The notes: generated by a model from the sequence alone, not told the origin. Counted from the first letter of the stretch, positions 4,997 through 31,990 are shown. The stretch is 64,000 nt of DNA from Lachnospiraceae bacterium UBA7160 (GCA_002491565.1 DKWE01000060.1:15688-79687); one strand, 5' to 3'. Translations and numbers: made by a program.

Positions 4997-5104
4997 AGAT
5001 GGCTCCTTTCCTGGTGCGGCGGCTGCCCGCATCAAAAATATTGTATCATTTTGTGCATATTTTGTCTATTTAAATTTATTCTCATATATGTAAAAACGCT
5101 GTAA

Positions 5105-8245
<3,141 letters not shown>

Positions 8246-14522: not shown

Positions 14523-14609
14523 AAACCTTAAGTTTTTCGAAATTGGTTGCGAATAGCGCAAGTGCGTGGTATGGTAGAAAGCGTGGAAAAAGTAGGACGA
14601 GGTGATTTT

Positions 14610-17404: not shown

Positions 17405-17594
17405 TAGTCGTTGGATAGGATTCTGTTCCGGAATTCAGCCGCCTGTCGGATGATCTGGTCGGTTGTTCGTTCCGTGGCGATGGCGCTGGAAAATCAAGCT
17501 GTGAAAATTTACCAGATAAGAGCAGGACAGGTTTTGATATACAGGAAGCAGATTTTGAATCAATCGGTACACTTAGTAGAAAGGAAGAAAAGCA

Positions 17595-17825
17595 ATGAGA
17601 GAAGAAGTATTGAATTTACTGGCAGAGATTTGCGAGGATGATGCGGTAAAGGAGGATTTGCAGACGGAGCTGTTTGAGTCCGGTCTGATGGATTCGCTTG
17701 GGTTTGCGGAGTTTCTGGTAGAGCTCGAGGATCAGTGCGGGGTGGTGATCTCTCCGTCTGAGGTAGAGCGGAAGGACATCGATACTCCGGAGAAGATCCT
17801 TGCGCTTGTGGAAGCAAGGAGATAG
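17595..17825 (+). CDS. dltC: D-alanyl carrier protein
   Basis: LFESGLMDSLG phosphopantetheine site, DTPEKI. Confidence 0.9.
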   Translation: MREEVLNLLAEICEDDAVKEDLQTELFESGLMDSLGFAEFLVELEDQCGVVISPSEVERKDIDTPEKILALVEARR

Positions 17826-17827
17826 CC

Positions 17828-19150
17828 GTGAGACGGATGAAAGCATTTCTGGCAGCTCTGCTTCTTTTTGCGGTGACGGTACTGGGCTGCCATCTCTACA
17901 TACAAAATCAGGGCGTGAACGACAGCGCTTCCTTTGCGCTTGCACCGAGTGAGGAGAAAGGCAAGCTGCGCGCTGCGCTGACAGAGAATATGCCCAAGGA
18001 CGGATATCCGGTGTTCGGCTCTTCCGAGTTCATGCATGGAGCGGATACGATCTACCATCCGGCGAACGTTTTTGCACAGACCGATTTTCATCCAATGCTG
18101 ATCGGGGCAGGGTATTATCAGTCTTTGAGTCATGCGGTCACGCTGGCCTCTATTGAGGAGAGTATGCAGGTGCGCAAGGCAGTCCTGATTCTTTCCCCGC
18201 AGTGGTTCCGCAAGACCGGTGTGGTGGACCAGGCATATGCGTCACGCTTTACTGAGACACATTATGCGGCGGCAATGGGAAATGAAAAGCTGTCCGATGA
18301 GACGAAGCAGTATATTTCAGACCGGACGCAAAAGCTTCTGAAGGTAGATGAGAAGACACGCGTGCGCGTACTCCGGTATGACGAGGTGCGCTGGAAGCAG
18401 GAGGGGGGCCCGCTCGCTGAACTCCGGGAGGAGGCATGGTCGGCGTTCCTGTATGAGAAGGAGCTGTTTGAGACGATGCTGCTCGGGAAATCGCTGAAGC
18501 GTCAGGAAAAGCGTCGGGCTGAGACTGCATCAGAGGTGCCGCTTGTACTGGAGGGGGCCGAGGATGCATCAGCTATACCAGAGATCTCAGAGCCTTCTGG
18601 AAACATGCCGGCTATACTAGAGACATCTGGAACTTCAGAAAATGAATTGCCGGTGGCAGAGGCATCTGAGTTTGCGGAAGGCGCGTCATATGTTCCGGAC
18701 TGGTCTGCGCTGTATGAGCTGGCAGAAAAAGAAGGCGAAGAGCAGAACCAGAATGAGTTTTTCATAGACGACGCCGCTTATAAGCGGCTCGTGCCGCACC
18801 TTCCTAAAAAGAAGGGAGTGAGCAGTGATGCGGTCAAGGGCTACCAGACCGGGCCGGAATTTGATGATCTGCGCTGCTTTCTTACCGTGTGCCGGGAGCT
18901 TGGCGTGGAGCCGATGATTGTGGTCGTCCCGGTGAACGGGTACTATTATGATTATACCGGGTTCCCGAAGGAGGCACGGCAGGCATACTACGCGAAGGTG
19001 AAGGGAATTGCAGAAGAGTACGGTGCGAAGGTTGCGGATTTCTCTGATCAGGAATACACAAAGTATTTCTTCGAGGATCGGGTTCACCTCGGGAAGAAAG
19101 GATGGCTGATGGTAAATGAAAGCCTTTATGAATTTTACAAAGAAGCTTGA
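17828..19150 (+). CDS. dltD: D-alanyl-lipoteichoic acid biosynthesis protein
   Basis: PVFGSSE, LSPQWF, DRVHLGKKGW; GTG start; acidic internal insertion. Confidence 0.9.
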   Translation: MRRMKAFLAALLLFAVTVLGCHLYIQNQGVNDSASFALAPSEEKGKLRAALTENMPKDGYPVFGSSEFMHGADTIYHPANVFAQTDFHPMLIGAGYYQSLSHAVTLASIEESMQVRKAVLILSPQWFRKTGVVDQAYASRFTETHYAAAMGNEKLSDETKQYISDRTQKLLKVDEKTRVRVLRYDEVRWKQEGGPLAELREEAWSAFLYEKELFETMLLGKSLKRQEKRRAETASEVPLVLEGAEDASAIPEISEPSGNMPAILETSGTSENELPVAEASEFAEGASYVPDWSALYELAEKEGEEQNQNEFFIDDAAYKRLVPHLPKKKGVSSDAVKGYQTGPEFDDLRCFLTVCRELGVEPMIVVVPVNGYYYDYTGFPKEARQAYYAKVKGIAEEYGAKVADFSDQEYTKYFFEDRVHLGKKGWLMVNESLYEFYKEA

Positions 19151-19277: not shown

Positions 19278-21065
19278 TTAAAATGTTTCTTCCTGCTGTT
19301 CAATTTTCTGGAGCATTCGCCACAGGGTCGTGCGGCTGATGCCGAGCTTTCGGGCAGCGGTGCTCTGGTTGCCGCCGCATTCCGCGAGGATCTGCCGCAG
19401 GATGTCGAGATTGATCTCTTCAAGAGTACGGTGCAGGTCCAGGGACGGTGCGGAGACCGCGCATGGAAGCTCTCTGCGGAGCAGACGGCTGACTTCGGAA
19501 GCACGGATGTAGGGAGAGTCCGCAGAAGCAACAAGTTCATTCATGATCCGCTCGAGCTGGTCGTAGTTGCCGGGCCAGGTATAGGATTGCATTTGACGGA
19601 TGCCCTCCGGCTCGATGCCGACGACTTCTTTTGCGAGCTTCATATTCAGATTGCCGATATATAAGCTGACGAGGTTTGGCATGTCGGAGAGATGCGTGCG
19701 CATCGGGGCGATTTCAAGGAGCAGGCAGGTGAGCCGGTTGAGCACTCTGCGGCACCGCGCAGGCATGTTTCCGTCCGCATCATAGTGGAACGTGATCAGG
19801 ATGCGGTTTTTCTGCGTCAGATTCAGATCTACGATGATGCCAAGCAGCTCTTCAAACTGAGCATCGGAGAGCTGGCTGATATTCTGGAGATAGATTGTTG
19901 TATTGGTGTCGGACAGAGGAGAAGAGTTATGGCTGGTCAGAAATGTCCAGCCTTTTTCATTGATCCGCGCGCAGTCAATGATTGCCATTGGCCGGTTCTG
20001 CAGGCGGCTCCTTGCATAGATCAGCCTTGCGAGGGATTCCTTTCCGGTTCCAGGCTCACCTATGATCACGAGAGGCGCGTTGCTCGCCGCATACTGCTCA
20101 ATCGACATGCCCTGGGGAGTAGCGGAGTGTGTGATGCCATAGAAGCTGTTGTAAAAGATGTCAAACGCTTCCTCGCGGTTGATATAACGGATGCCGTTTT
20201 TGGTCAGGGCAAGCGGGACCTTGCGGTGGTTAATATAATAGATTACATAGGTTCTATCTTCAAAGACCTTCCGGCAGCCCTGCATAACGTACAGAAGCCC
20301 GGAATATTCGTGGTAAATTTTCTTTTCTCCCTGCTCCAGTACTCCTGGCAGGTTCGCTTTAAGCGCGGCAATGACAGGCTCCGAAAGCTCGGAAACCCTT
20401 GTGAGCAGCACAGGCTTTGCATTCTCGTCAAAGACGACAACCGGCCAGGGGTGGTTATCAAGAATCAGACGCGAAAAGCCAAGGCCAGACTTCAGCCGGT
20501 CATGGGAGCGCCCGATCTGTACGGCAGAGTCAAAGGCGGATTCCACACTCTCTATGCCGGATGCAATCAGGATAGAGGTGAGGCCATAGCGCATCGCAAT
20601 AGAATTTGTAATCATGTCGCAGAGTACCATGCGGCAGCCCTCCCGCTGCAGCTTTTCCAGGATATCAGTCGCTTCTCTTTCATTGTGAATTGTATAGATG
20701 TCGATGCTGTACTGCATCATATCGCATAGAAAATGGGCATTCCGCGTGATTGCCGGAAAGCCGACGAGTGCATACTTGCTGGTATAATTTTCTGCCAGCT
20801 TGATGGAGCGGAAGATGTCATAGACCGAAAGCGGGATGTCGACGACGGGAAATGTTGTTGTTTTACGGATTAGCTCAGCAGTGCCTCCGCGTGAGATGAT
20901 GACGTCCGGGTCAGTCTGCGTATACCGTGAAACGATTGCGGCGCCAGCTTCCATATCTCCGGTAAACACTTCCAGTTCCACATCGTCTCTGCGGGCGGCT
21001 GCCTGCTGCATTAGATTTTGAATTCCTTCATAGGGCGCAATGCCCAGTATTTTCACTTTTTTCAT
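19278..21065 (-). CDS. PrpR N-terminal domain regulator with degenerate AAA+ domain and Fis-type HTH
   Basis: IISRGGTA PrpR_N motif, GEPGTGKE, WPGN, AARKLGISRTTLWR; no GAFTGA, Walker B reads IYLQNI. Confidence 0.88.
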   Translation of the reverse strand: MKKVKILGIAPYEGIQNLMQQAAARRDDVELEVFTGDMEAGAAIVSRYTQTDPDVIISRGGTAELIRKTTTFPVVDIPLSVYDIFRSIKLAENYTSKYALVGFPAITRNAHFLCDMMQYSIDIYTIHNEREATDILEKLQREGCRMVLCDMITNSIAMRYGLTSILIASGIESVESAFDSAVQIGRSHDRLKSGLGFSRLILDNHPWPVVVFDENAKPVLLTRVSELSEPVIAALKANLPGVLEQGEKKIYHEYSGLLYVMQGCRKVFEDRTYVIYYINHRKVPLALTKNGIRYINREEAFDIFYNSFYGITHSATPQGMSIEQYAASNAPLVIIGEPGTGKESLARLIYARSRLQNRPMAIIDCARINEKGWTFLTSHNSSPLSDTNTTIYLQNISQLSDAQFEELLGIIVDLNLTQKNRILITFHYDADGNMPARCRRVLNRLTCLLLEIAPMRTHLSDMPNLVSLYIGNLNMKLAKEVVGIEPEGIRQMQSYTWPGNYDQLERIMNELVASADSPYIRASEVSRLLRRELPCAVSAPSLDLHRTLEEINLDILRQILAECGGNQSTAARKLGISRTTLWRMLQKIEQQEETF

Positions 21066-21163
21066 GTTTCCTTTCCTCGGTTATTTTTCTTGTCAGTGGT
21101 GTCCTCTGTTTTGTCTTGCTGCAGTTGCTTCTAACTGTTCCAATTTTACCATATTTTGCTAAA

Positions 21164-21326
21164 TATTTCAATTATAAACATGAATGTTTCGAAATAAAAC
21201 AATAACACGCAAAAAACGCCGATAAATATATTGAAAAATAAAAAAATTATGGTAATATAGAACATACAAGAAGCGGAAACGGGAAAACCCATCCGCAAAA
21301 ACACCATAATGTTTCATATAGAAACA
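21164..21326. promoter_or_regulatory. Three 17-bp TGTTTC-N5-NAAACA pseudo-palindromes around a sigma70-type promoter
   Basis: Sites 21164 (TATTTCAATTATAAACA), 21185 (TGTTTCGAAATAAAACA), 21310 (TGTTTCATATAGAAACA); TTGAAA(21231)-16-TAATAT(21253) with TG extension. Confidence 0.6.
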
Positions 21327-21351
21327 AACAAATAAGGAGGGGCATTACAAG

Positions 21352-22908
21352 ATGAAAAAGAAAGTAGTATCCGGACTTCTTGCTATGACGATGGCGGCTA
21401 CCATGCTTAGCAGCACTGCTTTTGCAGAGGAGTCCTCCGACAACAGCTACACAATGTTTATGAGAAATACCTATGCAGGCTGGATTAAGGAGCTGAACTG
21501 GTATGACGTTGCGGAGGAGCGCACAGGTATTCATGTGGAGTATGTGGAAGGACCGGATGAGTTCAGTGATGTGTACGCGGAGGTTGACCAGAGAATCATT
21601 TCCGATACACTTCCGGACGCGGTGATGACAAAGCTGGCGCAGACAAATGTATACGGACCGCAGGGCGCGTTCGCGGACCTGGCTCCGTACATAGAAAAAT
21701 ATGCGCCGAACCTTCAGAAATACATCGATGACAATCCGGATTATAAGGCTCTGGTATCAGATGAAAACGGCGCGATCTACGGGCTGGTAAAGGAATCTCC
21801 AATCTTTCAGGATTTCCTCGGGTATCGTGTAGATCATCTGGAAAAGGCAGGCATCGATGCAGCTTCTATTCAGACAGTGGATGACTTCACAGAAGCGATG
21901 CGGACCTTGAAGGAGTTTTACGGCAAAGACAACCCGAACTACTATCCGCTGACCGGGCGCGAGGGTGTGTTCCGCTTCGGTGCATGGTTCCAGTGTCTGA
22001 GCAGCGTTGGCGCTGAGGGCAGCCATGGTATTTATATCGCACACTGCAAGGACTATTCATTCGACATTATGAATGAGAATGCATATACGATGGTTGAAAC
22101 AATGAAGACCTGGTACGATGAAGGACTGCTTCAGCCGCAGTTTGCGGAGGGGACCTTTACAGAGGGCGACTGGGAAGCAGATATGATCAACGGCAACGGC
22201 ACCTTCTTCTATGATTATTACAACCGCGCAGAGTGGTTCATGGAGAACGGCGGCCCGGAGGCTGACCCGGATTACCAGATGGGCGTGCTGGACAACTTTA
22301 AGGATGCGGATGGAAATCTGATCGTTGGCGCAGGTACATGCAAGTACAACGAGGAGTGTGTGACGGCAGTCAATGCGAAGTGCGACGAAGAGAAGATTAA
22401 GACAATCCTGACCTTCATTGATTACTTCTATAGCGAAGAGGGTATCACGCTTGCAAATTACGGTGTCGAGGGGGAGAGCTACGAGGTAGCGGAAGACGGA
22501 ACCAAGCAGTTTATCGCAGACTATGCGACGGAAGAAGCAAAGCCGGAAGGGGAGAAGAAGTGGTCCTTCCTGAGCGACCGCTTCACAGTCTGCAAGCCGG
22601 TAGACAATGAGGCATTTTTCGCATGGAATGCTCCGCTGATCGCAGACGCCTGCAGCAAATACATGGTAGATGACCATATCCGCACGGGCGTGAACATGAC
22701 CTACACAGCGGAGGAGACCGAGGAGCTGGCGAATCTGGTAGCTACCGTATACGATGCAGAGATCGCAGGCATGACTGCATTCGTTACCGGAAGCAACGAG
22801 CTGAACGAAGAGAACTGGGCGGCATTCCAGGAAGAGATGAATGGCCTCGGATTGTCCAGAATTGAGGAGATTCAAACTGCATCCTACAACAGAATGTATA
22901 GTGAATAA
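21352..22908 (+). CDS. Carbohydrate ABC transporter substrate-binding protein (family 1, LplA-like)
   Basis: Signal peptide, DLAPYIEKYAPNL, NYGVEGESY motifs. Confidence 0.88.
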   Translation: MKKKVVSGLLAMTMAATMLSSTAFAEESSDNSYTMFMRNTYAGWIKELNWYDVAEERTGIHVEYVEGPDEFSDVYAEVDQRIISDTLPDAVMTKLAQTNVYGPQGAFADLAPYIEKYAPNLQKYIDDNPDYKALVSDENGAIYGLVKESPIFQDFLGYRVDHLEKAGIDAASIQTVDDFTEAMRTLKEFYGKDNPNYYPLTGREGVFRFGAWFQCLSSVGAEGSHGIYIAHCKDYSFDIMNENAYTMVETMKTWYDEGLLQPQFAEGTFTEGDWEADMINGNGTFFYDYYNRAEWFMENGGPEADPDYQMGVLDNFKDADGNLIVGAGTCKYNEECVTAVNAKCDEEKIKTILTFIDYFYSEEGITLANYGVEGESYEVAEDGTKQFIADYATEEAKPEGEKKWSFLSDRFTVCKPVDNEAFFAWNAPLIADACSKYMVDDHIRTGVNMTYTAEETEELANLVATVYDAEIAGMTAFVTGSNELNEENWAAFQEEMNGLGLSRIEEIQTASYNRMYSE

Positions 22909-22944
22909 GCCGTATAAGCTGGCGGGAAAGAGGTAACGCTTTAT

Positions 22945-23097
22945 CAGAAAGAGGGCTGCTGCTTTGCGTGAGTCTGTCCGATATCGGGTAGCCTGGGCAT
23001 TGCAGCAGCCCTCTTTCTGGAAAGTCCTGTCTGAAAATTAATTTCTGCGGCTGATGGTAAGGAGCCATATGAACCGCAGAAATTAGTTTTCAGGCAG
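22945..23097. repeat. Two tandem long hairpins after the SBP gene
   Basis: CAGAAAGAGGGCTGCTGC/GCAGCAGCCCTCTTTCTG and CTGAAAATTAATTTCTGCGG/CCGCAGAAATTAGTTTTCAG. Confidence 0.75.
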
Positions 23098-23149
23098 CTT
23101 GTACGTATGGAGGCTGAGAGGCGGACAGCAGTGAGAAAGGAGCTATAGG

Positions 23150-24118
23150 ATGTCACGAAAAAGAGGAAAAGCGGCTGTGGCAGTGCAGAACCGGAAGAGT
23201 CTTCCGCAGCGCATCAAAAAGGACCTGAAGCGAAACTGGATTCTGTATCTTTTGCTTTTGCCGGGCGTGCTCAGTCTGATTTTGTTTAAGATCGGGCCGG
23301 TGGGCGGCATGGTAATCGCGTTTGAAAAATTCAGTGCATTTCAGGGGATATTTGGAAGCAAATGGGTAGGACTGGACAATTTTGTTAAGATTTTTAAGGA
23401 TCCGTATATTCCGAAGGTAATTGGAAACACAATTATTCTTGCGGTGCTTTCTGTGGTCGTTGTATTCCCGTTCCCGATTATTTTTTCCCTGTTTTTAAAT
23501 GAGGTGAAGCAGAAGAAAATCCGCAGTACGGTGCAATCTTTAAGCTTTCTGCCGTATTTCATTTCCGCGGCAGTCATGGTCAGTATCCTGTATCAGCTGA
23601 TGAGCCCGACCTCCGGACTGGTGAACAATATTATCCGCAGCTTTGGCGGAAAAGCGACGAATTTTATGGCAAAGCCAGAATGGTTCCGGCCATTGTATGT
23701 GCTCCTTGAGATCTGGCAGACATTCGGCTATTCCGCAATTATCTATATCGCTGCGATTAACAATATCGATCAGGAGCTGTATGAGGCAGCGGAGGTAGAC
23801 GGCGCGAATCGCTGGGACAAAATGTTCCGCATCACGCTTCCGTGCATCTCAACGTCAATTATCGTCATGCTGATTATCAGTGTCGGAAATATCTTTACGG
23901 TCAATCTCGACCGGATCCTGTTGATGTACAATCCGAGCGTGTATGAGACAGCGGATGTGATCCAGACGTACGTGTACCGGATCGCGTTTGAGTCGAAGGG
24001 CTTCCCGGATTACAGCTATGGCACGGCGGTGAATCTGCTGAAATCAGTCATTGCGTTTGTGCTGGTAATGGCGGTCAATAAGCTTGCGGATAAATTTGCA
24101 GAGACGCGTCTGTTCTAA
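23150..24118 (+). CDS. Carbohydrate ABC transporter permease (LplB-like)
   Basis: SKWVGLDNF, LYEAAEVDGA EAA loop. Confidence 0.92.
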   Translation: MSRKRGKAAVAVQNRKSLPQRIKKDLKRNWILYLLLLPGVLSLILFKIGPVGGMVIAFEKFSAFQGIFGSKWVGLDNFVKIFKDPYIPKVIGNTIILAVLSVVVVFPFPIIFSLFLNEVKQKKIRSTVQSLSFLPYFISAAVMVSILYQLMSPTSGLVNNIIRSFGGKATNFMAKPEWFRPLYVLLEIWQTFGYSAIIYIAAINNIDQELYEAAEVDGANRWDKMFRITLPCISTSIIVMLIISVGNIFTVNLDRILLMYNPSVYETADVIQTYVYRIAFESKGFPDYSYGTAVNLLKSVIAFVLVMAVNKLADKFAETRLF

Positions 24119-24135
24119 AATAGTAGGAGGAAATT

Positions 24136-25017
24136 ATGCGAAAGAAAAAGAAAATTCCGGTGTTTGATTTTGTGAACAATACGATCCTTCTGCTGGTAGG
24201 GCTCGTCTGTGTCTATCCGTTTTTGTATGTCCTGTTTACCGCATGCAGCGACGGTGCGTTTTTGCAGAGGGGCGAGGTCAGCTTTCTGCCGAAGGGATTT
24301 CACCTGGAGGCATTTAAGTACATTATGGGCAGCTCCAAATTTCATGTGTGGAGCGGACTGAGAAATTCCTTTCTCTATACAATCGGGGGTACGGCAATAT
24401 CAATCTTTCTGACGTACATTACGGCATATGCACTTTCCAGAGAGCGCGTGAAGGGTCGGTATTTCCTGATGGGTGCGTTCATTGTGACCTGGGTGTTTGA
24501 TGCGGGAATTATTCCACAGTACATTATCTATAATCAGCTCGGCTTTATCGATAATCCGTGGGTCATGATCATTCCCGGTGCGATCAATACGCAGTTTTTG
24601 ATTATTACAAAGACATTCATCGAGGGCATACCAAAGGAGCTTGAGGAGGCAGCATTTGTAGACGGTGCAAATGACTGGACAGTGCTTACCCGAATCTTTT
24701 TCCCATTGTCCAAGACGATTGTGGCGACGATCGGCACTTTCTACGCGGTATCGATCTGGAACCAGTACCTGATTCCCCAGATTTATCTGAAGTCGGACCA
24801 GTATAAGGTGATCCAGCAGGTGCTGAAGGAGGTCGTCATCACCGATGCAGGCGCGAGCACCGCATTCAAAAACGTCATGGTAAACGGGATCACACTGAAC
24901 CAGCAGAATCTGAAGGCGGCAGCGATCTTTATTGCGATGCTCCCGATCGTGCTGGTGTACCCGTTTGTACAGAAATACTTTAAGAAGGGGATTATGATCG
25001 GGGCGGTGAAGGGCTGA
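24136..25017 (+). CDS. Carbohydrate ABC transporter permease (LplC-like)
   Basis: LEEAAFVDGA, YPFVQKYFKKGIMIGAVKG. Confidence 0.92.
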   Translation: MRKKKKIPVFDFVNNTILLLVGLVCVYPFLYVLFTACSDGAFLQRGEVSFLPKGFHLEAFKYIMGSSKFHVWSGLRNSFLYTIGGTAISIFLTYITAYALSRERVKGRYFLMGAFIVTWVFDAGIIPQYIIYNQLGFIDNPWVMIIPGAINTQFLIITKTFIEGIPKELEEAAFVDGANDWTVLTRIFFPLSKTIVATIGTFYAVSIWNQYLIPQIYLKSDQYKVIQQVLKEVVITDAGASTAFKNVMVNGITLNQQNLKAAAIFIAMLPIVLVYPFVQKYFKKGIMIGAVKG

Positions 25018-25159
25018 GCGCCGGATTCGATTTGCAGAAATGATGAAGGCTTGCGGGCTGCATCAGATTTGTGGCGCGCAGCGCCGAATGTACGCGGTCT
25101 GCAGACATCTGCAGGAGGAGCCTGCAGGTTCTGCGCGAAGGAAGGGAAGGAGGAGTCTC

Positions 25160-26326
25160 ATGAGAGAATATATCGAACTGAATACATTGAAAGAGGATGG
25201 AAGACTGTATCACAACAATCTTTTGGACAGTGTGGAGGCACTGATTCCGAACCAGTTTGCGTCAGTGCATGCGGCAGATCTGCTGGAACTGCCGAACGGA
25301 GATCTGCTTGCGTGCTGGTTTGCCGGAAGCGATGAGGGAAATGCCGATATCAGCATTGCACTGTCGAGGCTGAAAGCGGGTGAGAGCCAGTGGAGCGCAG
25401 GAGAGATTGTCTCGGATGACCCGACACGCTCGGAGCAGAATCCATCGCTGTTTCTCACACCGAACGGGGAGATCTGGCTGATGTATACCGCACAGGTTTC
25501 CAGGACGCCGGAGTACAGTCCGAATTTTAATCTCCAGTATACGGCAGAGATACGAAGGAAGATTTCGAAGGACAATGGCTATACGTGGGGGCCGACGGAG
25601 ACCATGTTTTCGCGGCCGGGGTCCTTCTGCCGCCAGAAGATTCAGGTACTCTCAAATGGCAGATGGATTTTTGGAAACTGGATCTGCTTTCCGGATGAGA
25701 CCCGCAATGGGAGTGATATCACGGTGGTGCAGATCTCGGATGACGAGGGAAAAACGTGGCGCAGCGTGGAAATTCCGGACAGTGCCGGGCGCGTGCATGC
25801 GAACCTGATTGAGACGGAAGCGGGAAAGATTACAGCAATTTTTCGCAGCCGGTTTGCGGACAATATTTACATTGCCTACAGTGAGGACTATGGCGATACG
25901 TGGACCAGCCCGGTGCGCACCTGCCTGCCGAACAATAATTCGTCCATTTCCGCGGTGAAGCTGCAAAGCGGCGCACTGGCGCTGATCTACAACGCGCTTC
26001 GCTTTAACGACGACATGACGCGGACGGTATGGCCGAATCAGAGATGTCCGGTGACGTTTGCAATTTCAGATGACGGAGGAAAAACATGGCCGTACAAGCG
26101 CATCATTGAGATGGGGGAGGGCTTTGTCGGAGAATACAACGATATCAACAACCGCAGGTATGAATACCCGGTGATGATGCAGGGCCGTGACGGGAAAATT
26201 CATGCAGCATACAGCTTTGGGAGCCGCAGGTGCGTGAAATATGTCTGTGTGGATGAAACCTGGATCCGTGGCGAGAAAATGCTCCCGGGAGCGGAGGGGG
26301 ACCCTGCTATGCCTTGTCAGAGATGA
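25160..26326 (+). CDS. Cytoplasmic BNR/Asp-box sialidase-fold glycoside hydrolase
   Basis: Asp-boxes SKDNGYTW, SDDEGKTW, SEDYGDTW, SDDGGKTW; YEYP; no signal peptide; start MREYI after AGGAG. Confidence 0.85.
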   Translation: MREYIELNTLKEDGRLYHNNLLDSVEALIPNQFASVHAADLLELPNGDLLACWFAGSDEGNADISIALSRLKAGESQWSAGEIVSDDPTRSEQNPSLFLTPNGEIWLMYTAQVSRTPEYSPNFNLQYTAEIRRKISKDNGYTWGPTETMFSRPGSFCRQKIQVLSNGRWIFGNWICFPDETRNGSDITVVQISDDEGKTWRSVEIPDSAGRVHANLIETEAGKITAIFRSRFADNIYIAYSEDYGDTWTSPVRTCLPNNNSSISAVKLQSGALALIYNALRFNDDMTRTVWPNQRCPVTFAISDDGGKTWPYKRIIEMGEGFVGEYNDINNRRYEYPVMMQGRDGKIHAAYSFGSRRCVKYVCVDETWIRGEKMLPGAEGDPAMPCQR

Positions 26327-26460
26327 CAGGTGAAGCGGTAAAATGGCAGGCGTGCTGGAGAAAATACAGGCGAAGCGCGGAATGACAAGGGCGTCAGAGG
26401 CAACACCGAGGAAGCGCTGGAATAGCAGGCGTGCCGGAGAAAATATGAGGAGGAATCTTG

Positions 26461-27618
26461 ATGGCAGTGTATCAGATAAAAATTCCGTCCTGCATGTATG
26501 CAGGAGAAGGCAGCATCGAAAAAATTTGTGAGATCATTGCGCGGGAACAGGCAAAATCAATTCTGGTCTTTACGGATCCGGGCATTCGTGCGACGGGGCT
26601 TCTGAAGCTTTTGACGGAACAGCTTGACGCGGCCGGTGTTGCATACCGTGTATTTGACGATCTGAAGGCAGAGCCTGCGTACACAGATGTGGAGCGGGTG
26701 GTTGCGCAGGCGGAAGCGTTTGCAGGGGATTTGATTGTAGCGCTCGGCGGAGGCAGCGTGATGGATGCGGCAAAGCTGACGGCAGTGCTGTACCATGCGC
26801 CGTATACGATCCGTGACCTGCTGGAAAATCCAGCGCAGGCGTGCAGACAGATGAAATCTGTCATGATTCCTACGACATGCGGCACCGGAGCGGAGGCAAC
26901 GTGCAATGCGATTGTCGCGATTCCGGAGGAACAATCCAAGAAGGGGATTGTCAATGACAACATGATTCCGGATTATGTAATTCTGGACGCACAGATGATC
27001 CGCCGCCTACCTAAAGCAATTGTGGCGGCGACTGGGGTGGATGCGCTGGCGCATGTGGTAGAGTGCTTTACATCGAAAAAGGCAACACCGCTGAGCGACA
27101 CCTATGCAAAGGCAGGGGCAGAGCTGATCTTTGGCAATATCCGCAGAGCATACGAGGATCCGGATGATATGGAAGCAAAGAGCTGGATGCTGCTCGGCGC
27201 GTATTATGGCGGAGTGGCGATCACGGCGAGCGGGACGACAGCAGTTCACGCACTTTCCTATCCGCTGGGCGGACGGTATCACATCGCGCACGGCGTATCA
27301 AATGCAATCCTGTTTGCGCATGTAATGGAGTTTAATATGGAGGCATGCCAGGAACAGCTTGCCCGTCTTTCCGATGCGGTGAATCCGGGGATAGCGCGAA
27401 AAAGCACACAGGAAAAGGCAAAATACCTCATTGATGAGATTGCGGATATCGTGCGGGTGACAGAAATTCCGACAGATCTGGTGCGATTTGGAGTAAAGAG
27501 GGAGGACCTGGATTTCCTCGTGGATGCGGGGAGCCGGCAGACACGGCTGCTGGTGAATAACCGGAGGGAGCTTTCGCTGACAGATATCCGGTCGATATAT
27601 GAAAAAGTGCTGCGGTAG
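26461..27618 (+). CDS. Iron-containing alcohol dehydrogenase
   Basis: GGGSVMD, PTTCGTGAE, DALAH, VHALSY, HIAHG. Confidence 0.92.
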   Translation: MAVYQIKIPSCMYAGEGSIEKICEIIAREQAKSILVFTDPGIRATGLLKLLTEQLDAAGVAYRVFDDLKAEPAYTDVERVVAQAEAFAGDLIVALGGGSVMDAAKLTAVLYHAPYTIRDLLENPAQACRQMKSVMIPTTCGTGAEATCNAIVAIPEEQSKKGIVNDNMIPDYVILDAQMIRRLPKAIVAATGVDALAHVVECFTSKKATPLSDTYAKAGAELIFGNIRRAYEDPDDMEAKSWMLLGAYYGGVAITASGTTAVHALSYPLGGRYHIAHGVSNAILFAHVMEFNMEACQEQLARLSDAVNPGIARKSTQEKAKYLIDEIADIVRVTEIPTDLVRFGVKREDLDFLVDAGSRQTRLLVNNRRELSLTDIRSIYEKVLR

Positions 27619-27639
27619 CACGGTCAGGAGGAGAACAGG

Positions 27640-28695
27640 ATGCTAAGACCGATTTTGGGAATTACAATGGGGGATCCGGCGGGAAACGGGCCGGAGCTCT
27701 CGGTGAAGGCGCTGGCAAAGGCAGAGACGTATGAGAAATGCCGTCCAATCATCATTGGGGATGCGAACTGCATGGAGATGGCTGTGGCAGTTACCGGAAA
27801 TCAGGAGAAGGTCCGTATTCGCCCGGTCCACAGTGTGAGAGAGGCAAAATTTGAGTATGGGGTAATCGATGTGCTGGATCTGGGTCTGGTGGATATCGGA
27901 AAGCGTCAGTACGGCAAGGTGTCGGCAATGTGCGGGGAAGCAGCATTCCAGTATGTAAAAAGAGTGATTGAGCTTGCGATGGCGGGAGAGGTAGATGCGA
28001 CGGTGACGAATGCGCTGAATAAGGAAGCGATCAACCTGGCAGGACATCACTATTCCGGTCACACGGAAATCTATGCGCATTATACGAATACGCCGAAGTA
28101 CACGATGATGCTGGCGCATGAGGGACTGCGTGTCGTCCATGTATCGACACACGTATCTCTGCGTCAGGCATGTGATCTTGTGAAGAAAGAGCGCGTACTC
28201 GATGTAATCCGGATTGCGGATGAAGGGTGCCGGGCGCTTGGAATAAAGGAGCCGAAGATCGGTGTTGCCGGGCTGAATCCACACTGTGGGGAGAATGGCA
28301 TGTTCGGAACGGAGGAGATCGAGGAGATCCAGCCGGCAATTGACGCGGCACTTGCGGAGGGGATCAACATTCCGGAGAGAAAGCCGACACCTCCGGATAC
28401 CGTTTTTTCAAAGGCACTCGGCGGGTGGTATGATATTGTCGTGGTAATGTATCATGATCAGGGGCATATTCCGTTAAAAGTAAAAGGTTTCGTTTACAAT
28501 CAGGAGCGGAAACGCTGGGATGCGGTTGCAGGCGTCAATGTGACGCTTGGTCTTCCGATTATTCGTGCTTCTGTAGACCATGGCACAGGCTTCGGGCATG
28601 CGGGAGATGGCAGCGCAAATGAGCTGAGCCTTGTCAATGCGATGGACTATGCGATTGTGATGGCGAACGCGAAGGCAGAAAAGGACACCAGATAA
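27640..28695 (+). CDS. pdxA2: PdxA-family 4-phospho-tetronate dehydrogenase (PdxA2-like)
   Basis: ITMGDPAG, GHTE, GLNPHCGE, MYHDQGHIP, SVDHGT; adjacent to a DUF1537 kinase. Confidence 0.85.
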   Translation: MLRPILGITMGDPAGNGPELSVKALAKAETYEKCRPIIIGDANCMEMAVAVTGNQEKVRIRPVHSVREAKFEYGVIDVLDLGLVDIGKRQYGKVSAMCGEAAFQYVKRVIELAMAGEVDATVTNALNKEAINLAGHHYSGHTEIYAHYTNTPKYTMMLAHEGLRVVHVSTHVSLRQACDLVKKERVLDVIRIADEGCRALGIKEPKIGVAGLNPHCGENGMFGTEEIEEIQPAIDAALAEGINIPERKPTPPDTVFSKALGGWYDIVVVMYHDQGHIPLKVKGFVYNQERKRWDAVAGVNVTLGLPIIRASVDHGTGFGHAGDGSANELSLVNAMDYAIVMANAKAEKDTR

Positions 28696-28709
28696 ATTGG
28701 AGGTGGCCT

Positions 28710-29963
28710 ATGTTGAAGTTGTTGATCATTGCGGATGATTTTACAGGAGCGCTGGACAATGCGGTTCAGTTTGTGAAAAAGGGAATTGAGACACAGGTAG
28801 TGACCGGAGCGCAGCTTGACCGGACCGCAATTTCCGCGACTGCACAGGTGCTTGTGGTCGATTCAGAGACACGGCCGATGTCTGCGGCGGATGCTTACCA
28901 CTCTGTGATGAGGATTGTCCGGCAGGGGATCCGGATGGGTGTGAAAGTGATTTATAAGAAGACGGATTCTGCGCTGCGCGGCAATGTTGGAAGCGAGCTT
29001 TCCGCGGTTTTGGATGCGACCGGGGGAAAGCGGATTTACTTCATCCCCGCGTTTCCAGCAGTGCGCCGGATAACGCTCAAAGGAGTGCACTATATTGACG
29101 GCGTGCGCCTGGAGGAGAGCAGCTTCGGACAGGACCCATTTGACCCGATGGACTGCTCTTCTGTGCCGGAGATTCTGGCACGTCAGACGGAGAAACCGGT
29201 GATCTCTGTCTCTGTGGGAGAGCCGATACCGCGGCAGAGAGCCGGGCAGGAGATCCTGGTATTTGATGCACTGAAGGATGGAGATATCCTGACACGCGTC
29301 GAGGAGCTGCGCCGCAGGGGAGAGTTGTGTCTGCTGGCAGGATGTGCCGGGTTCGCTTCATTTCTTCCGGATGCACTTGGGCTGACAGGAAATTACCGGG
29401 GCGAAGTGCGCAAGTCAAAGTGTTTTTATGTAGCGTGCGGCAGTCTGAACCCGATTACACGGGAACAGCTGCGGTATGCACAGGAAAACGGGTTTTACCG
29501 GGGCACACTGACGCCGGAGCAGAAACTCTGGCCGGAGTACTACGAGACGGAGCAGGGAGGCAGGTTTCTGCAGCGCCTGACCGGGATTTGCCAGAGCAGA
29601 CGGCTTGTAGAGATGGACAGTTTTGATCCGGATGGGCAGGAAACCACGGATGAGTATGCGGCACGGTTTGGAATTGGAAATGAGGAAATCCGTTTTTCTG
29701 TGAGCGCCTGTCATGGAAGAATTGTGCGGCATTTGTTAGAGCAGAATATGGATATGACGGTGCTGATGACAGGCGGCGATACGCTGATGGGGTTTATGAA
29801 GGAAATCGGGGTCAACCAGCTTACACCTGTCGCGGAGGTAGGGCAGGGAACTGTGCTGTCACAGCTTTTATGGAAGGGGAAGGTATTGCAGGTGATTTCG
29901 AAATCTGGGGGATTTGGAGATGAAGCGGTACTGGTGAAAATTGCGCAGCAGGTGGTCGCATAG
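28710..29963 (+). CDS. Four-carbon acid sugar kinase (DUF1537, DtnK/DenK-like)
   Basis: IIADDFTGA, YKKTDSALRGN, TGGDT, KSGGFG. Confidence 0.9.
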   Translation: MLKLLIIADDFTGALDNAVQFVKKGIETQVVTGAQLDRTAISATAQVLVVDSETRPMSAADAYHSVMRIVRQGIRMGVKVIYKKTDSALRGNVGSELSAVLDATGGKRIYFIPAFPAVRRITLKGVHYIDGVRLEESSFGQDPFDPMDCSSVPEILARQTEKPVISVSVGEPIPRQRAGQEILVFDALKDGDILTRVEELRRRGELCLLAGCAGFASFLPDALGLTGNYRGEVRKSKCFYVACGSLNPITREQLRYAQENGFYRGTLTPEQKLWPEYYETEQGGRFLQRLTGICQSRRLVEMDSFDPDGQETTDEYAARFGIGNEEIRFSVSACHGRIVRHLLEQNMDMTVLMTGGDTLMGFMKEIGVNQLTPVAEVGQGTVLSQLLWKGKVLQVISKSGGFGDEAVLVKIAQQVVA

Positions 29964-30062
29964 CAGGAGAATGGCCTGACTGGAAATCGCGGGAGTACCG
30001 GACCGGGGAAAAGCAGAGAGGCGGCTGATGAGAAAAGCGCAGGACGAGGAGGCGGAAAAATA

Positions 30063-31022
30063 GTGAAAATCGAGGGAATTGTAGCGGCAATGCAGACTCC
30101 AATGCATGAGGATGGAAGCATCCATGAGGAGGAGATGCGAAGACAGATCAACCGGCAGATTGACGCAGGGGTGGATGCTGTGTTCTGCCTTGGGACAAAT
30201 GGGGAATTTTATGCACTTGATGTGGAAGAAAAGCTTCGTGTGATGGAGATCTTTGTGGACGAGGTGCGCGGACGTGTGCCAGTCTATGCAGGAACCGGGT
30301 GCATTACCACAAAGGATACGATTGCACTTTCAAGGAAAGCAAAGGAGATCGGAGTGGATGTGCTCTCGGTCATTACGCCATACTTTGCAGCGCTTAGCCA
30401 GGATGAACTCTGTGATCATTACGCTGCGCTTGCGGAGGCTGTGGATCTGCCGATTGTGATGTATAATATTCCGGCGCGGACAGGCGTATCCATTGCGCCG
30501 GAGACCGCGGCACGGCTGGCATCGCGGTATCCGAATATCGCAGGAATCAAAGACTCCAGCGGGAATTTTAATCATATTCTTCAATACATCGATGCGACGG
30601 ATCCAGAAACCTTTTCTGTGCTGTCCGGAAATGATGCGCTGATTCTCTGGACTCTGCTGGCGGGCGGCAAGGGCGGAATTACCGCAATTGCAAACATCCT
30701 GCCAGCTGTGATGGTCAGCATTTACCAGAACTACCGGAAGGGGGATCTGGCTGCAGCGAAGAAGGCGCAGGCTTCTATCGCTCCGATCCGCGCGTGCTTC
30801 CGGTACGGCAATCCAAATTCGATCGTCAAGCGTGCGACGAACCTGATCGGACAGCCGGTTGGTCCGTGCCGTGCTCCGTTTGGGAAAATTCCCAGGGAGG
30901 CTGACCTGGCAATCATGGAGACTATTGACCGCTATTATGCTCAATATCGTGCTTCCCACCGCCCGGATGCCCCGCAGGGCAGTACGAGCCCGCTTTCACG
31001 GACTGGAAGCCCGATTTCCTGA
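30063..31022 (+). CDS. DHDPS/NAL-family pyruvate-dependent aldolase
   Basis: GTNGE, YNIP, GIKDSSG; GTG start; 3' end overlaps the convergent gene. Confidence 0.88.
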   Translation: MKIEGIVAAMQTPMHEDGSIHEEEMRRQINRQIDAGVDAVFCLGTNGEFYALDVEEKLRVMEIFVDEVRGRVPVYAGTGCITTKDTIALSRKAKEIGVDVLSVITPYFAALSQDELCDHYAALAEAVDLPIVMYNIPARTGVSIAPETAARLASRYPNIAGIKDSSGNFNHILQYIDATDPETFSVLSGNDALILWTLLAGGKGGITAIANILPAVMVSIYQNYRKGDLAAAKKAQASIAPIRACFRYGNPNSIVKRATNLIGQPVGPCRAPFGKIPREADLAIMETIDRYYAQYRASHRPDAPQGSTSPLSRTGSPIS

Positions 31023-31804
31023 GACTCTACGTGACCGCCCAGCTTCCGAAGCTCCGTAGAGATCAGGTACGTCAGCACGGCAGGCGCGAGCCCGGTCGTG
31101 TAGGAATTGACGAGGAAGAAGAGCGGCTGGTCACTGAGCAGCTGTGCCGCAAGGCGGATAAATGGATGAATGGAATCTTCGATTTTCCAGATTTCCCCCT
31201 TGGGGCCGCGGCCGTAGGATGGCGGATCCATGATAATCCCGTCATAATGATTGCCGCGCCGGATCTCCCGCTCTACGAATTTCGTGCAGTCGTCTACCAG
31301 CCAGCGGATCGGTGCATCCGAAAGGCCGGAAGCGGCTGCATTTTCTTTGGCCCAGCCGACCATGCCCTTTGAGGCATCGACGTGCGTCACTGCAGCCCCC
31401 GCTTTCGCCGCGGCCAGCGTCGCGCCGCCGGTGTAGGCAAATAGATTCAGCACCCGGATCGGGCGGCCGGCATTCCGGATCTTCTCGGAGAACCAGTCCC
31501 AGTTCGTCGCCTGTTCCGGGAACAGACCTGTATGCTTGAAGCTAAATGGCTTCAGATGAAAGGTAAGCTCCCGGTACTGGATGCTCCACTGCTGCGGGAG
31601 ATCAAAGAACTCCCATTCTCCGCCGCCCTTTGCGCTTCGGTGATAATGTCCGTTCGGATGGCGCCACCCTGCTTGTACACGCGGGGTATCCCAGATCACC
31701 TGCGGGTCCGGCCTCACCAACAAATAATTCCCCCAGCGCTCCAGCTTTTCTCCCTTTGAGGTATCTATCACTTCATAATCCTTCCATTGATCGGCAATCC
31801 ACAT
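30941..31804 (-). CDS. Class I SAM-dependent (rRNA) methyltransferase, RlmI/RlmK-like
   Basis: HTGLFPEQ, VLNLFAYTGG, MDPPSYG; start MWIADQW after AAGGAAGG. Confidence 0.88.
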   Translation of the reverse strand: MWIADQWKDYEVIDTSKGEKLERWGNYLLVRPDPQVIWDTPRVQAGWRHPNGHYHRSAKGGGEWEFFDLPQQWSIQYRELTFHLKPFSFKHTGLFPEQATNWDWFSEKIRNAGRPIRVLNLFAYTGGATLAAAKAGAAVTHVDASKGMVGWAKENAAASGLSDAPIRWLVDDCTKFVEREIRRGNHYDGIIMDPPSYGRGPKGEIWKIEDSIHPFIRLAAQLLSDQPLFFLVNSYTTGLAPAVLTYLISTELRKLGGHVESQEIGLPVRESGLVLPCGASGRWEARY

Positions 31805-31961
31805 AAGCTTGACCTGTTCCTTCCTTATATAATAGTCTCCTCTAGTATAAGCGATGTGGGCAGTGGAAGCAAGTAAAGCCAGAAAAATAATTACAAGTTC
31901 CAGTAAATCATGAATGCGTAAAAATATTGAGCACAATCCATTTATAATAAGAAAAATCCGA

Positions 31962-31990
31962 TTGCAATAAAGCATCATATGTGTTATAGT
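31962..31990 (+). promoter_or_regulatory. Promoter of the small toxin-like ORF
   Basis: TTGCAA-17-TATAGT with TG extension. Confidence 0.6.

Follow-up and report, generated by a model that had tools for sequence, protein, structure and literature searches.

A conserved Lachnospiraceae operon as a candidate catabolic system for a seven-carbon 2-keto-3-deoxy sugar diacid, possibly the pectin sugar Dha

The window, a 64,000-nucleotide stretch of DNA from a rodent-gut Lachnospiraceae bacterium (UBA7160), contains at positions 19278 to 31022 eight genes in one orientation and, divergent from them, the gene for a PrpR_N-type regulator. Domain searches located every gene of the original prediction where it had been placed, and the features are as follows.
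19278–21065, minus strand: regulator with a PrpR_N sensor, a degenerate sigma-54-type AAA+ domain and a Fis-type HTH_8 (Pfam)
21066–21351, no strand: divergent control region between regulator and operon (consensus promoter matches)
21352–22908, plus strand: ABC importer SBP, 518 amino acids (N-terminal signal peptide, distant PDB relatives)
23150–24118, plus strand: ABC permease 1, CUT1, UgpA/MalF-like (BPD_transp_1)
24136–25017, plus strand: ABC permease 2, CUT1, UgpE/MalG-like (BPD_transp_1)
25160–26326 (open from 25040), plus strand: cytoplasmic BNR_2 protein with a six-bladed sialidase fold, presumed ketosidase (Pfam, structural model)
26458–27618, plus strand: Fe-ADH, presumed aldehyde-acid (threuronate) reductase (Fe-ADH and ADH_Fe_C)
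27640–28695, plus strand: PdxA-family NAD-dependent oxidative decarboxylase, PdxA2-like (Pfam, TIGR00557)
28710–29963, plus strand: DUF1537 four-carbon acid-sugar kinase (SBD_N and NBD_C)
30063–31022, plus strand: DHDPS/NAL-family class I pyruvate aldolase (Pfam, signature motifs)

The regulator matches PrpR_N (175 bits), HTH_8 and AAA_lid_14 in Pfam and Sigma54_activat only in part; a regulator of the same type lies divergent to the operon at 48 of 80 related loci and may control its expression. Sigma-70-like promoters in the control region (plus strand, 21231–21258; minus strand, 21171–21143) are consensus matches only. The SBP gave no Pfam or NCBIfam matches, and its best PDB relatives (E values of 1e-18 to 1e-12) are Smon0123 (5XS8, 5GUB) and AlgQ1/AlgQ2, distant relatives with acidic oligosaccharides as ligands, unsaturated glycosaminoglycan disaccharides and alginate oligosaccharides, respectively. 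It adjoins the permeases at 67 of the 80 loci. Both permeases carry a BPD_transp_1 domain; permease 1, which is 80 to 93% identical to its counterparts in the closest loci, matches the UgpA and MalF NCBIfam models below cut-off, and permease 2 matches UgpE and MalG. No ATPase gene for the importer lies within the operon.

The BNR_2 protein (196 bits in Pfam) has no signal peptide. Although its reading frame is open from 25040, homologs are ∼388 amino acids long and start at the Met at 25160, so the ATG at this position is probably the real start. An AlphaFold2 model (mean pLDDT 93) was used for a Foldseek search, in which the best structural matches were GH33 sialidases with a TM-score of about 0.7 and 15 to 20% identity. 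Arg2, Arg3 and the nucleophile Tyr of sialidases have their aligned counterparts in Arg229, Arg295 and Tyr336, while the first Arg of the triad, in the RIP motif, is replaced by His37 and the catalytic Glu is missing, with His213 in place of the Glu partner. As modeled, the active site is non-canonical for a sialidase. The protein is retained even in clusters whose transporter is of a monomer type, which makes a role as ketosidase uncertain. BT1020, a GH143 hydrolase of Bacteroides thetaiotaomicron, is reported (Ndeh and colleagues, 2017) to release Dha from the RG-II backbone, which is the activity that we propose for the BNR_2 protein, but it is of another family and works in another compartment of the cell. 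Among the top 50 Foldseek matches, nearly all of them GH33 sialidases, there was no GH143 structure.

The aldolase displays the signature motifs GTNGE, TPxF, YNIPxRTG and KDSSG and matches DHDPS in Pfam at 271 bits. Among NCBIfam models it exceeds the cut-off for dapA (218 against 206), scores 194 with HpaI-not-DapA and stays below cut-off for both NanA models (168 and 155). Its final 22 codons form an extension that is absent from homologs and overlaps a convergent methyltransferase gene. Elsewhere in the same genome, on other contigs, are a dapA–dapB pair and a nanE–nanA–SSS cluster, which argues that the operon aldolase is neither the DapA nor the NanA of the cell. The Arg equivalent to DHDPS Arg138 (in YNIPxRTG) is invariant in 57 of 57 operon-linked orthologs and in the E. 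coli protein, Phe occupies the position of DHDPS Tyr107, and the genome's own NanA has Leu at the Arg138 position. Since this Arg binds the carboxylate of aspartate semialdehyde in DHDPS, its conservation favors a diacid substrate; the spacing between aldehyde and carboxylate in threuronate is that of aspartate semialdehyde.

A sialidase fold next to a NAL/DHDPS-family aldolase could also denote an ordinary operon for utilization of sialic acid, KDN or Kdo, and the system proposed here resembles sialic acid (nan) catabolism at its front end, where a 2-keto-3-deoxy acid sugar would be released from a ketoside and split by a class I pyruvate lyase. However, nanK, nanE and nagA are absent from the operon, as had been claimed at the outset, and the genome has the separate nanE–nanA–SSS cluster. 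The aldolase falls under the NanA cut-offs and has the DHDPS-type Arg rather than the Leu of NAL, the Arg triad of the hydrolase is incomplete, with His for its first Arg, and the ManNAc, mannose or arabinose released from such sugars would provide no substrate for the tetronate back end of DUF1537 kinase and PdxA2. We therefore regard a conventional operon of this kind as very improbable.

The Fe-ADH falls below every NCBIfam equivalog cut-off, with scores of 252 bits for lactaldehyde reductase, 248 for ErcA and 201 for 4-hydroxybutyrate dehydrogenase. The PdxA-family protein (332 bits for PdxA in Pfam; 317 for TIGR00557, cut-off 290) scores 322 against the D-threonate-4-phosphate dehydrogenase model NF002891, whose cut-off is 583. 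At 45% identity, it is the reciprocal best match of a protein of E. coli CFT073 that carries the RefSeq name D-threonate 4-phosphate dehydrogenase. For the kinase, the best NCBIfam match is D-threonate kinase (185 bits, cut-off 450), followed by 3-oxo-tetronate kinase (105); it is 24% identical to the E. coli ortholog, named dtnK in RefSeq, of which it is the best match in the window's genome. A D-threonate catabolic pair of DtnK, a DUF1537 kinase, and PdxA2, a decarboxylating 4-phospho-D-threonate dehydrogenase, was reportedly characterized by Zhang and colleagues (PNAS, 2016). The same two families are adjacent in the window, with DHAP and CO2 as the predicted end products; unlike that pair, they are accompanied by an importer, a sialidase-fold protein, an aldolase and a reductase, and threonate would be made inside the cell. 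That kinase and dehydrogenase score below the equivalog cut-offs weakens the identity of the back-end substrate, and D-erythronate is as possible an intermediate as D-threonate. Between the PdxA2 proteins of E. coli and Salmonella, identity is 75% (PMC12928451).

Conservation was assessed at 80 genome loci with an orthologous BNR_2 gene, counting the five enzymes within 10 kb. The original prediction had called for a neighborhood analysis of the five-enzyme set, and the full set is kept at 62 of the 80 loci; all eight genes are present at 58, and seven gene orders occur. Lachnospiraceae, Oscillospiraceae, Christensenellales, Spirochaetes, Coriobacteriaceae and Paenibacillaceae, from several phyla, are represented, and the gene grouping is far beyond chance. 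The five enzymes are also clustered in E. coli CFT073, in Rhizobium, in a Comamonadaceae isolate and at 30 to 35 of 51 metagenome loci. Sister clusters rely on an SLC13/DASS or CitMHS permease, as in E. coli and other Lachnospiraceae (54 to 78% identity between the two), a TRAP system or a tripartite tricarboxylate transporter; plant bacteria are among the carriers of versions with di- or tricarboxylate transporter families, and such families are consistent with a diacid. In Amycolatopsis, BNR_2, PdxA and DUF1537 genes occur with an HpcH/HpaI class II aldolase in place of the DHDPS-type aldolase and an aldo-keto reductase in place of the Fe-ADH, non-orthologous replacements that fit the roles of aldolase and reductase.

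The E. coli version, a 'pdxA-like cluster', is located in genomic region GR6 of B2/ExPEC strains between nagE and glnS; Sinorhizobium meliloti 1021 has three such clusters, one of which is of this type (PMC12928451; Thiaville et al. 2016 as cited there). The E. coli cluster has five enzyme families in common with the window, all reciprocal best matches, with identities of 42% for the hydrolase, 42% for the aldolase, 38% for the Fe-ADH, 45% for PdxA and 24% for the kinase, but has an SLC13-type permease, YhcH and a DeoR regulator in place of the CUT1 ABC importer and PrpR_N regulator of the window. The original claim of novelty is right only in part, as the genes of the cluster are already listed in the literature, although with neither substrate nor pathway (PMC12928451). 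Our literature search found no published account of Dha catabolism.

We propose that the operon serves to break down a glycoside of a seven-carbon 2-keto-3-deoxy dicarboxylic sugar acid by way of D-threuronate and D-threonate, a reading to which we give about even chances. The CUT1 importer would bring in an acidic oligosaccharide, such as Dha joined to galacturonate, and the sialidase-fold protein would release the acid sugar in the cytoplasm. Cleavage by the class I aldolase would yield pyruvate and D-threuronate (2,3-dihydroxy-4-oxobutanoate), the aldehyde of which the Fe-ADH may reduce to D-threonate; phosphorylation by the DUF1537 kinase would then give 4-phospho-D-threonate, and oxidation and decarboxylation by the PdxA2-like enzyme would give DHAP and CO2. 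The original chemical logic, from ulosaric acid to pyruvate and a C4 aldehyde-acid and on to DHAP, holds, and a Fischer projection check agrees that the D-lyxo configuration leads to D-threuronate and D-threonate. The route is redox-balanced, with one NAD(P)H in and one NADH out, and costs one ATP. The galactarate/glucarate pathway, with the aldolase GarL, the tartronate-semialdehyde reductase GarR and the glycerate kinase GarK, follows the same order one carbon shorter, from keto-deoxy diacid to pyruvate and aldehyde-acid, then hydroxy-acid, then phosphorylated product, and the HpcH/HpaI aldolase of the Amycolatopsis version belongs to GarL's family. In contrast, the window's substrate would be C7 rather than C6 and require an additional oxidative decarboxylation, and the families are class I aldolase, Fe-ADH and DUF1537 kinase.

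Another hypothesis is that the enzymes form two independent pairs. The substrate of the aldolase would be a 2-keto-3-deoxy aldonate, such as a deoxy-hexonate or pentonate, and its products pyruvate and lactaldehyde or glycolaldehyde; the Fe-ADH, by analogy with FucO, might reduce this aldehyde to the diol. Kinase and PdxA2 would separately use free D-threonate, D-erythronate or 4-hydroxy-L-threonine from the other part of the imported compound. Lactaldehyde reductase is indeed the best, if sub-threshold, match of the Fe-ADH, and the Amycolatopsis replacement is compatible, as HpcH/HpaI-family aldolases include 2-keto-3-deoxy-L-rhamnonate aldolase. Pairs of DUF1537 and PdxA2 have also been tied to 4-hydroxy-L-threonine recycling (Thiaville et al. 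2016, as cited in PMC12928451). However, the operon has no dehydratase to form a keto-deoxy aldonate, the invariant carboxylate-binding Arg and the di- and tricarboxylate transporter families favor a diacid, and the five enzymes have stayed clustered despite seven rearrangements and several changes of transporter, as one linear pathway predicts. Two separate pairs thus seem improbable to us.

In a further reading, the same enzymatic steps would act not on an RG-II fragment but on a small glycoside that joins the acid sugar to an α-glucoside or sucrose. Much as with raffinose in msm-type operons, the hydrolase would detach the acid sugar, and a phosphorylase or glucosidase would act on the sucrose or glucoside that remains. 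At 19 of 80 loci, the hydrolase gene is directly followed by a GH13_18 sucrose-phosphorylase-like gene, with spacings from short overlaps to 124 bp from the preceding ORF (ORFs from a simple ORF finder). These genes fall into three divergent subtypes only 30 to 42% identical to one another, which indicates that the link was gained or kept independently. One of them reaches 806 bits with the sucrose phosphorylase equivalog and has a fructokinase-like PfkB as its partner in Paenibacillaceae; another resembles the Ilumatobacter sucrose-6F-phosphate phosphorylase 6S9U and is preceded by a P-loop kinase. At two loci (L083 and L084) the operon includes a GH63-like gene, and in Eisenbergiella it is followed by a GH31 gene. 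Recurrent neighbors of these kinds suggest an α-glucosyl or sucrose part, which is absent from RG-II. The GH13_18, GH63-like, GH31 and fructokinase neighbors of other lineages did not figure in the original prediction.

Against such a glycoside, about three quarters of the loci, the window included, lack these accessory genes, none occurs in the examined E. coli, Rhizobium and Comamonadaceae clusters or among the recurrent families of the metagenome loci, and we know of no natural glycoside that joins such an acid sugar to an α-glucoside or sucrose. A pectic origin is a better fit to the neighbors of the stand-alone hydrolase: in two Lachnospiraceae MAGs, BNR_2 orthologs 86 to 89% identical to that of the window adjoin AraC, GH28, GH88/105 and GH43 genes. 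A PdxA search (E 1e-40 or better) found none in these two MAGs or in three further genomes with a stand-alone BNR_2. Overall, we consider the α-glucoside or sucrose conjugate rather unlikely.

The evidence for a plant-pectin origin of the substrate is indirect. The window's genome contains uxaC and two GH28 genes, and 318 plasmid or chromid matches come nearly all from Rhizobium, Sinorhizobium, Pantoea, Ralstonia and Agrobacterium. Beside the operon, no RG-II-specific enzyme was found in the loci examined, save one GH127 and one weak GH106-like match. Most likely, the operon converts an imported acidic plant-wall sugar fragment, with the rare pectin sugar Dha as the best candidate, to pyruvate, DHAP and CO2. 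The control genome of B. thetaiotaomicron, the model RG-II degrader, gave no DUF1537 match, and Dha could therefore remain for cross-feeders.

Open reading frame and domain searches recovered, within 19278-31022 of the window, every gene from which the original prediction had assembled a catabolic pathway for Dha (3-deoxy-D-lyxo-heptulosaric acid, a rare sugar of pectin RG-II). The genes are arranged as follows.

19278-21065, minus strand: regulator of 595 aa; domains PrpR_N, sigma-54 AAA (weak match) and Fis-type HTH (HTH_8)
First of eight genes, plus strand: solute-binding protein (SBP) of 518 aa with a signal peptide and without a Pfam match
After the SBP, plus strand: two MalF/MalG-type permeases
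After the permeases, plus strand, in this order: BNR_2 protein, Fe-dependent alcohol dehydrogenase (Fe-ADH), PdxA-family dehydrogenase, DUF1537 kinase and DHDPS-family protein

A spacer of 286 bp separates the regulator from the plus-strand genes. The match of the regulator to the sigma-54 interaction domain is partial (residues 321-371 only), and judging from its domains the protein may not act via sigma-54. Homologues of the BNR_2 protein (hereafter the hydrolase), which carries no signal peptide, are ~388 aa long, and its start therefore probably lies at 25160, not 25040. The kinase gene adjoins the PdxA gene with a gap of 14 bp. The open reading frame of the DHDPS-family protein (hereafter the aldolase) extends ~22 codons beyond the C-terminus of its homologues (319 versus about 297 aa), and this tail (30941-31022) shares 82 bases with the convergent methyltransferase gene (30941-31978, minus strand). 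Both flanks, this methyltransferase downstream and the dlt operon upstream, are unrelated to the operon. The dlt genes (D-alanyl carrier ligase, MBOAT and DltD) occupy 14547-19150, and an AraC regulator, a GH2 beta-galactosidase (1019 aa) and a GPH/MFS_2 sugar transporter at 4124-9946 form a separate lactose or galactoside unit. The nearest relatives are from Lachnospiraceae. The DNA recurs almost unchanged in gut metagenomes of rats and mice sampled in several studies, and RNA-library contigs from one study, whose libraries may hold DNA, cover parts of every operon gene at 95-100% identity, a weak hint of transcription in the rodent gut.

The five-enzyme set (hydrolase, Fe-ADH, PdxA, kinase and aldolase) is conserved. 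In a survey of hydrolase orthologs with one genome per species (80 loci, 53-89% identity), 62 loci hold all five enzymes within 10 kb and 58 hold all eight genes, and those short of the full set are mostly on short contigs. Carriers include Hungatella, Eisenbergiella, Anaerocolumna, Lachnoclostridium phytofermentans, Oscillospiraceae and Christensenellales, as well as Spirochaetes, one Coriobacteriaceae genome, Paenibacillus and Fontibacillus. Seven gene orders occur among these loci: the commonest is kinase, ADH, aldolase, PdxA, SBP, permease, permease, hydrolase, and the order found in the window (SBP, permease, permease, hydrolase, ADH, PdxA, kinase, aldolase) recurs only in Blautia sp. OF03-15BH and one MAG. 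The trait is patchy, with a hydrolase homologue in 2 of 36 other genomes of the genus (52-53% identity) and in 13 of 400 genera of the family (46-53% identity). The region was read in five of those 13 genomes; all five have the regulator, kinase, hydrolase, aldolase and PdxA, four have the Fe-ADH, and the ABC importer is replaced by an SLC13/DASS-type permease in three and by a TRAP DctM protein in one, with no transporter identified in the fifth. Because the set outlasts extensive rearrangement and exchange of transporters, it is one functional unit. More distant relatives of the hydrolase (37-45% identity; P0140, P0148, P0175, P0128 and P0146) sit in settings unrelated to the operon or on short contigs, and are uninformative on it, and among 300 genomes from the phylum of a MAG labelled 'Bacteroides' (G061) the hydrolase query matched only the MAG's own contig.

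The hydrolase is a six-bladed beta-propeller with Asp-box repeats, as in the GH33 fold, and four SxDxGxTW boxes are conserved. Its AlphaFold2 model (pLDDT 93) has GH33 sialidases as the best Foldseek matches, with a TM-score of about 0.7. In a profile alignment Arg229 and Arg295 correspond to Arg2 and Arg3 of the sialidase arginine triad; the triad is incomplete, the RIP-motif position being occupied by an invariant His37 (motif HAA or HAS) in all cluster-linked orthologues. Sequence and profile alignment, with no superposed structure, places an invariant Tyr336 (motif EYP) on the position of the nucleophile Tyr, and by alignment only the position of its Glu partner is His213 (Gln in distant relatives) and the acid/base Asp of the YD.R motif falls in a gap, with an invariant Glu59 nearby. 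As the RIP arginine, the Glu partner and the acid/base Asp are not matched in these alignments, we describe the protein as sialidase-like in fold and, as far as its aligned residues indicate, only partly so in catalysis, and do not file it as a GH33 member. Further arginines are invariant (a CRQ motif, an FRSR motif and Arg356), and we speculate that they serve a second carboxylate.

The aldolase scores 218 bits against the dapA model TIGR00674 (cut-off 206) and falls below the cut-offs of two NanA models (168 bits against 281 and 155 bits against 382). It carries the Schiff-base Lys, Tyr133, Thr44 and Arg138 of DapA: where it reads GTNGE, YNIPARTG and GIKDSSG, the DapA of the same genome has GTTGES, YNVPSRTG and GVKEASG at the aligned positions. 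The Arg of YNIPxRTG is kept without exception in the 57 operon-linked orthologues and the E. coli protein; in the NanA of the same genome, which reads YNIPQLAG, this position is Leu. A true DapA was rejected given the Phe that all 57 orthologues have at the position of DHDPS Tyr107 (TPxF versus TPYY), the lack of a dapB context, and the better dapA (344 bits) that adjoins dapB on another contig. A true NanA was rejected on the scores, on the Arg in place of Leu, and on the separate nanA, which is clustered with nanE and a sodium-solute symporter (SSS) gene (G000, the window's own genome, contig C19:36445-40311, locus L007); from this cluster the organism is probably also a user of sialic acid. 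With a true dapA-dapB pair and a nanA-nanE pair elsewhere in the genome, the operon aldolase is a third paralogue with a different job. Its conserved Arg corresponds to Arg138 of E. coli DHDPS, the residue to which aspartate semialdehyde binds through its carboxylate. In D-threuronate the aldehyde and the carboxylate sit on a four-carbon skeleton like that of aspartate semialdehyde, and we infer that this Arg would bind a distal carboxylate here.

The kinase has the SBD_N and NBD_C domains and the PdxA neighbour typical of DtnK; it scores 185 bits against the DtnK model NF047819, below the cut-off of 450, and is 24% identical to E. coli DtnK. Membership of the dehydrogenase in the PdxA family is clear (TIGR00557, 317 bits, cut-off 290); against the D-threonate 4-phosphate dehydrogenase model NF002891 it scores 322 bits, below the cut-off of 583, and it shares 45% identity with the E. 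coli protein that takes its name from that model. A second DUF1537 kinase of the genome lies outside the window in a different sugar cluster (contig C119:119-19250, locus L178), together with GH2, ROK, a GH13_18 sucrose-phosphorylase-like gene, a 996-aa FAD oxidoreductase, two GH38 alpha-mannosidases, an Asp/Glu racemase-family gene, an FGGY kinase, a class II FBP-type aldolase and an SIS protein.

Related clusters extend beyond the Firmicutes. The nagE-glnS region of E. coli CFT073 encodes SLC13 family permease, YhcH-family, sialidase family, TerC-family and DHDPS-family proteins and an Fe-ADH, and, divergently, dtnK, a D-threonate 4-phosphate dehydrogenase (both RefSeq names) and a DeoR regulator. 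Identities between the window and CFT073 are 42% for the hydrolase, 42% for the aldolase, 38% for the ADH, 45% for PdxA and 24% for the kinase, and the best match of each CFT073 cluster protein in the window's genome is the corresponding operon gene. This E. coli region (GR6) and a similar Sinorhizobium meliloti cluster have been listed as a 'pdxA-like cluster' without a pathway, with 75% identity between the E. coli and Salmonella PdxA2 proteins and 40% between the kinase and Salmonella DtnK (PMC12928451). A metagenome scan returned E. coli-type relatives only, with SSS, SDR, YhcH, DeoR, LysR, TRAP and CitMHS neighbours; of the contigs bearing E. coli-type hydrolases, the 51 that reach 9 kb mostly hold Fe-ADH, aldolase, PdxA, kinase and DeoR with an SSS transporter, SDR and YhcH, and pectin enzymes were found near none of these loci. 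The five enzymes also accompany an Opp-type ABC system on a Rhizobium leguminosarum plasmid and a tripartite tricarboxylate transporter (TTT) binding protein in a Comamonadaceae isolate from an Arabidopsis leaf. In Amycolatopsis solani a hydrolase ortholog (42% identity) is clustered with an Opp-type ABC system, DeoR, PdxA and DUF1537; here an HpcH/HpaI-family aldolase and an aldo-keto reductase take the places of the DHDPS-type aldolase and the Fe-ADH, a non-orthologous displacement that fits the roles of pyruvate aldolase and carbonyl reductase. The HpcH/HpaI family is best known for HpcH and GarL, which cleave C7 and C6 keto-deoxy diacids.

The SLC13/DASS, CitMHS, TRAP and TTT families carry di- or tricarboxylates or organic acids, and their recurrence beside the module fits a dicarboxylic substrate. 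Because the hydrolase is kept in clusters with monomer-carrier-like transporters, it may catalyze a reaction other than simple removal from an oligosaccharide. The SLC13/DASS permease of a Lachnospiraceae locus (L182; G518:C1, ~15233-16450 of the locus) is 78% identical to that of CFT073 (NC_004431.1:738713-739993), far above the enzymes (38-45%, window versus E. coli), which suggests recent horizontal transfer between gut Firmicutes and E. coli. The window's own transporter has the MalF/MalG-type permeases and the signal peptide-bearing SBP of a CUT1 importer; no ABC ATPase gene is present in the operon. The sole solved relatives of the SBP, at low similarity, are Smon0123, which binds unsaturated glycosaminoglycan disaccharides (PMC5717064), and AlgQ1/2, which bind alginate; the ligands of both are acidic oligosaccharides.

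The stereochemistry on which the original prediction depends is correct on paper. In Fischer projection, C5 and C6 of Dha survive retro-aldol cleavage as a threo pair which, drawn with the aldehyde on top, is D-threuronate, and reduction followed by renumbering from the carboxylate gives D-threonate. Such a route would use each enzyme once, be redox-neutral and cost one ATP, and it parallels the galactarate route (GarL, GarR and GarK), which is one carbon shorter.

All vascular plants have RG-II in their cell walls, and gut microbes use it as a nutrient. Several directions of indirect evidence link the operon to plants and pectin. Two Lachnospiraceae MAGs have a hydrolase, with 86-89% identity to that of the window, that lies with an AraC regulator beside GH28, GH88/105-family and GH43 genes. 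The other seven operon genes were not found within 10 kb, and a PdxA search of these two MAGs and three more genomes with a stand-alone hydrolase gave no match at E 1e-40 or better; in the two MAGs the hydrolase seems only to trim a pectic oligosaccharide. Hydrolase homologues are found on 318 plasmids or chromids, almost all from Rhizobium, Sinorhizobium, Pantoea, Ralstonia and Agrobacterium, a count that overstates the plant link as the collection is rich in rhizobial megaplasmids. The window's genome encodes uxaC and two GH28 genes, and so the host could use galacturonate from the same fragment. DUF1537 had no match in the control genome of Bacteroides thetaiotaomicron, which fits cross-feeding on the leftovers of that degrader.

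Some accessory genes do not fit an RG-II fragment. A GH13_18 gene directly follows the hydrolase gene in 19 of the 80 loci, in three subtypes that are mutually 30-42% identical. The Anaerocolumna-group copy (locus L025) reaches 806 bits against the sucrose phosphorylase equivalog model; the Paenibacillaceae copies, ~42% identical to it, have an AraC regulator and a fructokinase-like PfkB gene ahead of them; and the third subtype, similar to the sucrose-6F-phosphate phosphorylase 6S9U, comes after a P-loop kinase-like gene. The latter, between the hydrolase and GH13_18 genes (L047:11174-12163, with equivalents in L037, L048 and L057), encodes a ~330-aa protein (GGSGVGKS) with no Pfam or NCBIfam match that may be a new sugar kinase. 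A GH63-like gene, for which sequence comparison gave no informative PDB relative, is part of the operon in two loci and adjoins it in another two; GH31 and GH127 genes follow the operon in one Eisenbergiella, and a weak GH106-like protein follows it in L. phytofermentans. RG-II is not known to contain glucose or fructose, yet such genes recur, which raises the main but less likely alternative that the same enzymes act on an acid sugar linked to an alpha-glucoside or sucrose. The sucrose and alpha-glucoside genes are either neighbours of convenience or the mark of a differently decorated substrate in some lineages.

Taking the RG-II and the alpha-glucoside- or sucrose-linked substrates together, comparative evidence supports well, and makes probable, a linear route in which the operon would convert a dicarboxylic keto-deoxy sugar acid to DHAP by way of a four-carbon acid. 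This line of the original prediction is supported by the comparisons; its naming of Dha from RG-II stands as the best specific candidate substrate only, and we consider the case for it evenly balanced. More tentatively, the operon could constitute the first route described for the breakdown of Dha, the one remaining RG-II sugar whose fate has yet to be established, and at once supply the physiological source of D-threonate for DtnK and PdxA2, found a new family of cytoplasmic Dha ketosidases with a His-Arg-Arg site and unrelated to GH143, and allow gut Firmicutes to scavenge Dha fragments left by Bacteroides.

Full-text literature searches, incomplete in coverage, turned up no account of how Dha is catabolized. 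According to a 2026 preprint on RG-II, B. thetaiotaomicron secretes several sugars whose pathways are unconfirmed in other gut microbes; the breakdown of Dha is not among its subjects. Among the entries listed in the L. phytofermentans ISDg RNA-seq tables, Cphy1403 is the only BNR gene and does not belong to such a cluster (PMC4230839). The gene cluster itself is already catalogued, without a function (PMC12928451). To this the window adds the version with a CUT1 ABC importer in gut Firmicutes, the aldolase signature at Arg138, the enzyme swaps in Amycolatopsis, the pectin loci in which the hydrolase stands alone, and the sucrose and alpha-glucoside accessory genes. Because the cluster is widespread, in gut Firmicutes, E. 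coli, rhizobia and plant-pathogenic Ralstonia and Pantoea, thousands of genes would be annotated by a single set of assays, and the pathway, if true, would give the sialidase-fold family a new specificity and define a subfamily of DHDPS-like aldolases now misnamed dapA.
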